A model generated the notes under the pieces. That model saw only the letters and a list, made by a program, of their open reading frames with translations, made no database searches and had not been told where the DNA came from. Below, one piece after another: positions 60,432-60,618 of a DNA stretch of 64,000 bases (positions within the stretch are counted from its first letter, which is position 1; each line of letters starts with the position of its first letter). The position numbers and the translations under genes were made by a program. Location of the stretch: the NCBI RefSeq assembly GCF_030384885.1, contig NZ_CP128613.1; one strand, written 5' to 3'. Source of the DNA: Escherichia coli. Its GTDB lineage: Bacteria > Pseudomonadota > Gammaproteobacteria > Enterobacterales > Enterobacteriaceae.

Positions 60432-60579
60432 AGGCTCCTTTTAGTTGCAAAGGTTGTGCTGAATGAAGATAAAAAGAGGCAACTTATTGCTCTGAATATA
60501 GTGCGTAAGGAGATGAATAAATATCAAAAATCGCTCAATATGCCCGTGTGGGTGGATATATGTAGCGCGGGTTACGATA

Positions 60580-60605
60580 ACAGGGCAAGTTTCGCCCTGT
60601 TTTTA
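60580..60605 (+). terminator. Plus-strand intrinsic terminator between elaD start and rbn stop
   Basis: acagggc-aagtttc-gccctgt followed by TTTTT on the plus strand; on the minus strand it is preceded by an A-run, so it may also serve rbn. Confidence 0.6.
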
Positions 60606-60618
60606 ATAATAGGCAGAG

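Follow-up and report, generated by a model that had tools for sequence, protein, structure and literature searches.

A stem-loop at the border of the elaD cassette of Escherichia coli that marks the 3' end of rbn mRNA and is oriented as a modest terminator on the opposite strand

When Rho-terminated mRNAs are trimmed in the 3'-to-5' direction, their final 3' ends are said, in work of Dar and Sorek that dates from 2018 (NAR), to be marked by stable stem-loops, and bidirectional terminators located between convergent genes were reportedly described by Ju, Li and Liu in 2019 (Nature Microbiology). Trimmed stem-loop 3' ends of Rho-terminated mRNAs are also discussed in PMC10687069 and PMC7815308, and bioRxiv 10.1101/2022.10.23.513370 is a further reference on bidirectional terminators. 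A further related system is the symmetric bidirectional promoter (Warman et al., bioRxiv 10.1101/2020.01.31.928960); such promoters are enriched in horizontally acquired DNA, and an 18-bp geometry is the commonest among them.

The window analyzed here is a 64-kb stretch (64,000 nucleotides) of E. coli DNA, the plus strand of which corresponds to the minus strand of K-12. The rbn and elaD genes are co-directional, both on the minus strand, and are separated by a spacer of 187 bp that contains a hairpin next to the rbn stop codon (Table 1). The spacer has no indels relative to K-12, so that across it the MG1655 position equals 2443144 minus the window position. The region 60300-60750 is 100% identical to the corresponding sequence of strain 2013C-4282 and is matched in 5,421 of the 5,426 complete E. 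coli genomes. The reading that we favor, with a probability of roughly 0.6, is that a single stem-loop, placed where the elaD cassette borders on rbn, would provide the 3'-end structure of rbn mRNA on the minus strand, through Rho termination plus trimming, and a modest backstop terminator on the plus strand.

Table 1. Features of the rbn-elaD region and its surroundings (window coordinates)
Feature	Position	Strand	Description
yfbL	57808-58809	-	
yfbK remnant	59078-59152		last 25 codons
elaD cassette	59131-60618		AT-rich (29-41% GC), ~1.5 kb; replaced yfbK 3' end, convergent hairpin, elaD, 187-bp spacer with hairpin
elaD	59262-60431	-	
Antisense-elaD RNA segment	60250-60380	+	C>G; C/G 2.25 at 60250-60327; ends at the Rho region at 60380
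Candidate plus-strand promoter	60399-60428	+	TTGACA (60399), 18-nt spacer, AACCAT (60423); predicted start ~60435
elaD promoter	60491-60527	-	TTGATA 60527-60522, 18-nt spacer, CACTAT 60503-60498; start ~60491; 60-nt 5' UTR
TATAGT, candidate -10	60497-60502	+	5/6 match; overlaps the elaD -10; without -35; predicted start ~60509
C-rich, G-poor RNA tract	60501-60578	-	C 29.5%, G 14.1% over 78 nt; resembles a Rho loading site
rbn primary 3' termini	60571-60580	-	peaks at 60576 and 60573 (PMC10687069 supplementary files 4-6)
Hairpin	60579-60601	either	stem AACAGGGC / GCCCUGUU, 8 bp, 6 G-C-rich core pairs; loop 60587-60593
T-run	60600-60604	+	U5 then AAUAAUA; on the minus strand, an A-run ahead of the hairpin
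rbn	60619-61536	-	longest ORF reaches 61554
elaA and elaB		+	also within the window

Strand asymmetry of the spacer hairpin

The hairpin is built on the inverted repeat ACAGGGC (60580-60586) / GCCCTGT (60594-60600), which encloses the 7-nt loop AAGTTTC; one additional A-U pair lengthens the 7-bp stem to 8 bp. It folds on both strands, with a predicted energy of -12.8 kcal/mol on the plus strand (z -3.3; 1 of 200 shuffled sequences equally good) and of -14.6 kcal/mol on the minus strand (z -4.6; 0 of 200). The sequences that flank it on the two strands are distinct. On the plus strand, the stem of 6-8 bp (dG -9.7 to -12.8 kcal/mol) agrees with what is expected of an intrinsic terminator, that is, at least 5 bp with a loop of 3-8 nt, and the U-tract that follows (UUUUUAAUAAUA after the 6-bp stem) qualifies marginally: the first one or two Ts of the T-run are part of the stem, and four Ts are left beyond the 7-bp stem, followed by AATAATA. 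On the minus strand, that is, the rbn strand, AAAAA lies ahead of the hairpin, and the tail past it, UUAUCGUAACC, does not qualify as a U-tract. In a bidirectional terminator, both strands would have a U-tract; here it is present on the plus strand only, and the opposite flank reads CGATA on that strand.

The hairpin-plus-T-tract score d, computed with a d'Aubenton-Carafa-type formula and ViennaRNA energies, for which the threshold is approximate, is +4.0 on the plus strand vs -19.4 on the minus strand, and the T-tract score is 3.94 vs 2.29. Altogether, 13 sites in the 64-kb window reach the d value of the spacer hairpin vs 0.95 expected from dinucleotide shuffles (a 13-fold enrichment); the spacer hairpin is the lowest-scoring among these 13. 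The built-in terminator scan, which applies a stricter rule, missed the hairpin on both strands because the first Ts are absorbed by the stem extension. A second, imperfect hairpin is predicted just upstream, at 60542-60572 on the plus strand.

The hairpin is real and non-random, and it is a canonical terminator in the plus orientation only, of modest strength. A sequence-only reading of this DNA had placed a plus-oriented, terminator-like hairpin between the minus-strand genes elaD and rbn, and sequence, folding and the d score confirm it. The same reading offered a bidirectional terminator as one explanation, but the hairpin is not a textbook case, with a T-run on one flank only and flanking genes that are not convergent. 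Elsewhere in the window, the hairpins at 5314-5331 and 55648-55663 score as terminators on both strands and have a T-run on either side, which makes them, in contrast to the hairpin in the rbn-elaD spacer, genuine candidates for two-sided terminators.

The rbn strand: mapped 3' ends and Rho termination

In MG1655, the primary 3' terminus of rbn has been mapped by TRS at K-12 2382564-2382573 on the plus strand, with peaks at 2382568 and 2382571, and the corresponding entry depicts the same hairpin with an energy of -14.6 kcal/mol (PMC10687069). On the window, the two peaks fall 3-6 nt past the stem on the minus strand, that is, directly after the hairpin, which supports the earlier suggestion that this hairpin is able to end rbn, too. 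We regard the role on the rbn strand as settled, in that the hairpin marks the 3' end of rbn mRNA, and this terminus was already known, being present in the published table of 3' ends (PMC10687069). The TRS rows between K-12 2380678 and 2389989 include no terminus on the opposite strand (PMC10687069).

About 75 nt further downstream than the hairpin, a Rho termination region has been reported on the same strand, at K-12 2382642 (plus), which is window 60502 (minus), with a Rho score of 3.2 and a p value of 5e-5 (PMC7815308). The reads upstream and downstream of this point are 57/31 without bicyclomycin and 46/81 with it (PMC7815308 supplementary file 2), and the elaD promoter, located 11 nt downstream of 2382642 (plus), may add to the read-through signal there. 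Base composition is compatible with the action of Rho at this place: C/G composition suits Rho loading on the minus strand past the hairpin, as it also does on the plus strand ahead of 60380.

Given the lack of a U-tract after the stem, the C-rich tract that follows and the bicyclomycin-sensitive region downstream, we infer that the rbn ends derive from Rho termination and subsequent trimming to the stem. Most RNA polymerase would pass the hairpin on this strand because it encounters no U-tract there; Rho would load on the C-rich RNA just past the hairpin and terminate transcription about 75 nt later, and exonucleases would then trim the rbn RNA back to the hairpin, probably leaving the ends 3-6 nt beyond the stem. 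Direct, weak intrinsic termination of rbn, aided by the upstream A-tract, may take place and is inseparable in these data from Rho termination plus trimming.

The plus strand: antisense transcription, promoters and the possibility of a small RNA

Although the annotated flanking genes are co-directional, convergent RNA exists in the form of antisense-elaD transcription. A second Rho termination region lies at K-12 2382764 (minus), which is window 60380 (plus); it is classed as antisense to elaD and has a Rho score of 3.6 (PMC7815308). The reads upstream and downstream are 274/21 without bicyclomycin and 503/139 with it (PMC7815308 supplementary file 2), so that reads downstream of 60380 rise about sevenfold with the drug. 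The plus-strand antisense-elaD RNA outnumbers the sense RNA, and Rho ends most of it some 50 nt within the 5' end of elaD. Without bicyclomycin, 21 reads fall in the 800-nt plus-strand window that covers the spacer, a resolution at which the point where they stop is unresolvable. The plus-strand RNA of the spacer is G-rich (C/G 0.4-0.8), which is unfavorable for Rho.

Under the favored reading, in which the hairpin has a role on each strand, the stem followed by U5 would act as a modest intrinsic terminator of plus-strand transcription and could receive RNA from two sources: antisense-elaD RNA that escapes Rho near the elaD start, and transcripts that start divergently at the symmetric elaD promoter region. 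The hairpin would then be the sole barrier to plus-strand transcription running antisense into rbn because Rho acts poorly on RNA as G-rich as that of the spacer. Against a terminator role on the plus strand stand the weakness of the terminator (d of about 4, the lowest of 13; 4-5 Us) and the scarcity of plus-strand spacer RNA. A plus-strand 3' end at 60604-60608 is absent from the TRS tables and from the curated Term-seq lists, which are thresholded lists, for a locus with low expression, so that the absence carries little weight; the curated Term-seq 3' ends include none in K-12 23824xx-23827xx (PMC7815308).

The same observations can be read to mean that the hairpin serves rbn only, as a terminator or a stabilizer, with the T-run being either an A-tract of the kind that is common ahead of terminator stems or simply AT-rich cassette sequence. 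We regard this as possible but doubtful. It agrees with the 3' ends being observed on the rbn strand alone, with the marginal score on the plus strand and with the little plus-strand RNA that reaches the hairpin in untreated cells; moreover, short T-runs are not rare in AT-rich DNA such as the spacer (35-44% GC). However, it is on the plus strand that the hairpin has the features of an intrinsic terminator, which it lacks on the rbn strand; antisense transcription toward the hairpin does exist, as the bicyclomycin effect past 60380 indicates, and would not be readily stopped by Rho in the spacer, given the composition of the RNA.

The divergent source of plus-strand RNA depends on the promoters around the start of elaD. 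A sigma-70 5' UTR of elaD is listed at U00096.2 2380676-2380735, which corresponds to a start at window 60491, within 1 nt (PMC4448311 Table 10). The top minus-strand match to a promoter matrix, a simple one based on approximate consensus frequencies, is the elaD promoter with a start at 60491, in agreement with the published 5' UTR. A genomic SELEX peak of the sigma-70 RNA polymerase holoenzyme is located in the rbn-elaD spacer (PMC3946193). The promoter proposed by Shimada in the same study, TTAAAA-18-TGTTAT, sits on the hairpin and is a consensus guess; the start at ~60491 fits the published 5' UTR better, and we do not adopt this proposal.

On the plus strand, TATAGT is a candidate -10 element that overlaps the elaD -10, CACTAT, in such a way that positions 2 and 6 of the two elements are base-paired with each other and the predicted divergent start (~60509) lies 18 bp from the elaD start at 60491, the geometry described for symmetric bidirectional promoters (bioRxiv 10.1101/2020.01.31.928960). 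A second candidate, TTGACA-18-AACCAT, lies within the first elaD codons and scores 10.0 vs a 90th percentile of 9.3 (best score per 261-nt window). The built-in promoter scan called none in the spacer. A plus-strand start at this locus does not appear in the supplementary tables of the SMRT-Cappable-seq paper or of the Cappable-seq and 2026 NAR bidirectional-promoter papers (PMC12825309 and PMC4782308), which contain no entry for the locus.

These candidate starts and the terminator could together delimit a discrete, divergent plus-strand non-coding RNA of ~100 nt (from ~60509) or ~170 nt (from ~60435) that would end at ~60604-60608, at the U-tract, and regulate genes in antisense or in trans. 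The ~170-nt RNA would be antisense to the elaD 5' UTR, and both predicted lengths overlap the rbn 3' end. We consider such an RNA unlikely. It is suggested by a terminator that is canonical on the plus strand only, by the overlap of TATAGT with the elaD -10 in the 18-bp divergent geometry, by the score of TTGACA-18-AACCAT, which exceeds the 90th-percentile mark for best matches, by the RNA polymerase binding peak in the spacer, and by the retention of the promoter elements and the terminator in every allele examined. Several results argue against it. An Rfam 15 scan of 58500-62500 (E of at most 10) gives no match in the spacer; neither MG1655 nor any other of the listed RefSeq genomes has a non-coding RNA annotated there; the TRS and Term-seq tables contain no plus-strand 3' end; and the 800-nt plus-strand interval that includes the spacer has no more than 21 reads. 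The predicted fold of the whole RNA is unremarkable (z of about -1.9), and neither candidate promoter has two good hexamers, in line with the built-in scan. The U-tail consists of 5 Us, below the typical need for Hfq binding; according to Otaka et al., in 2011, Hfq-binding small RNAs are said to typically need at least 7 Us. Nothing on such a small RNA was found in the literature: searches on elaD together with terminators, sRNA or antisense yielded incidental matches only, polluted by the author name Elad, and the ElaD paper mentions the T7 terminator alone.

The sequence-only reading had proposed either a divergent small RNA or a bidirectional terminator. What stands of this proposal is the plus-strand orientation of the terminator, canonical by score, and the plus-strand transcription that approaches it; for the small RNA, direct support is missing. 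That reading itself had named rbn-strand 3' ends alone, together with the absence of a plus-strand transcript, as the outcome that would speak against a small RNA, and the accessible strand-specific data lean in that direction. Were a discrete plus-strand RNA to exist, the cassette would carry an antisense regulator of the gene for a type III effector-like deubiquitinase, a finding of moderate interest.

Highly improbable, in our estimate, is the more elaborate possibility that the elaD cassette carries its own divergent non-coding RNA of ~100-170 nt, ended by the plus-strand terminator, that couples or represses rbn and elaD by antisense pairing or transcriptional interference. Such an RNA would overlap the 3' end of the mRNA of the housekeeping gene rbn (RNase BN/Z), and the ~170-nt version would overlap the elaD 5' UTR, too.

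The plus-strand ORF of 76 aa at 60399-60629 that was pointed out earlier, without a Shine-Dalgarno sequence, is indeed present; it starts with TTG and runs through the hairpin into rbn. That it encodes a small protein, of 76 aa from TTG 60399 or of 38 aa from ATG 60513, has a practically negligible probability. Apart from the presence of the ORF, the only feature in favor of translation is GGAG immediately ahead of ATG 60513, and here the spacing between GGAG and ATG is zero, whereas the TTG start has no Shine-Dalgarno sequence at all. The ORF crosses the terminator and ends within rbn, so that any transcript ended by the terminator would lack a stop codon, and it is unannotated in every genome listed. 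A coding role is therefore rejected as not credible, the ORF reading through the terminator.

The elaD cassette and comparison with known systems

The spacer is found in 4,488 of the 5,426 E. coli genomes (~83%), with 95-100% identity, and elaD adjoining rbn was not found in any other genus sampled. Similarity to elaD-less E. coli ends at window 60616-60619 (query 317-320), which places the cassette boundary exactly at the rbn stop codon. The GC content of elaD and the spacer is 29-44% (spacer, 35-44%) vs 50-58% in rbn. In elaD-less strains and in a divergent Escherichia lineage, yfbK and rbn are convergent and are separated by a different spacer, of 120 bp, with its own long hairpin; in E. 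albertii and in a Pseudocitrobacter genome, yfbK is likewise convergent with rbn. The Pseudocitrobacter genome (L021) has the hairpin GGGGGCG-AAA-CGCCCCC between the convergent rbn and yfbK genes, right after the rbn stop codon. The 3' stem-loop of rbn thus seems to be a different one in each lineage. Judging from these comparisons, the hairpin probably arrived with the elaD cassette or arose at the cassette edge, given that the spacer is limited to E. coli, AT-rich and bounded at the rbn stop codon. A phage or plasmid origin of the cassette was considered and rejected: no phage sequence matches it, and the records of 'plasmids' that do so are in fact chromosomal and wrongly labelled.

Among nine E. 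coli alleles, the T-run does not vary, and the stem does so only in O121 strain RM8352, where G60594A disrupts the innermost pair. Covariation in the spacer could be assessed within E. coli only, at 95-100% identity, a diversity too low to reveal covariation or selection on the T-run; the sole stem change seen breaks a pair and is not compensatory.

Several rearrangements have affected the cassette and its neighborhood. In the window (58842-59152), yfbK is almost wholly deleted, with ~1.53 kb of the K-12 sequence missing; a similar loss is found in O157:H7 and O121 strains, and the 575-aa gene is kept in K-12 and others. The ElaD allele of the window has 389 aa (K-12, 403 aa; O157:H7, 407 aa); its C-terminus is shorter and has diverged (3' end of the gene, 59262-59300), and the protein is 90.7% identical to the K-12 allele vs 98% for the adjacent rbn. 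Between the yfbK remnant and the 3' end of elaD, there is another hairpin (59178-59207). Compared with K-12 (CGACCAGTCAGC / GCTGACTGGTCG), paired substitutions keep two of its stem positions complementary; it also has 1-2 mismatches and a folding energy of -19 to -25 kcal/mol vs -30 to -32 in K-12.

Two strains carry IS1 at essentially the same site of the spacer (~60566-60570), immediately ahead of GCGGGTT and the hairpin (L002, 2248-2945, and L090, 1788-2485). The two insertions are in opposite orientations and have different adjoining deletions, and the hairpin stays beside rbn in both. Strains BH100 and KKo003 (L085 and L086, 2397-2701) have lost yfbK and nearly all of elaD, with 111 nt of the elaD 5' end left; despite these deletions, the 187-bp spacer and the hairpin are still beside rbn.

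At most, the hairpin is a tidy case of a foreign-DNA border stem-loop with two jobs, namely, marking and stabilizing the 3' end of the Rho-terminated mRNA of a core gene and blocking the antisense or divergent transcription that AT-rich acquired genes tend to generate. How it compares with the described systems differs between the strands. With the trimmed ends of Rho-terminated mRNAs, the rbn side shares a hairpin without a U-tract, 3' ends a few nucleotides past the stem, and, downstream, C-rich RNA together with a region sensitive to bicyclomycin; it differs in that the trimming of the rbn transcript is deduced, and direct termination, weak and A-tract-assisted, may operate. With bidirectional terminators, the locus shares the use of one hairpin for transcription from both sides, so that the 3' regions would overlap; unlike them, it has co-directional genes, a T-run on one flank and 3' ends on one strand only. 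The resemblance to symmetric bidirectional promoters lies in the overlapping -10 elements at the AT-rich, horizontally acquired elaD locus, although the plus-strand start is, in this case, a prediction from sequence. Compared with intrinsic terminators, the spacer hairpin is weak (4-5 Us) and, on the plus strand, has no upstream protein gene, known RNA or mapped 3' end, but it does possess, on that strand, a G-C-rich stem of 6-8 bp, a 7-nt loop, an adjoining U-run and a positive score. As terminator hairpins go, it is ordinary, but the asymmetry between its strands is instructive: the orientation of the T-run alone does not tell on which strand the 3' ends occur at a terminator.
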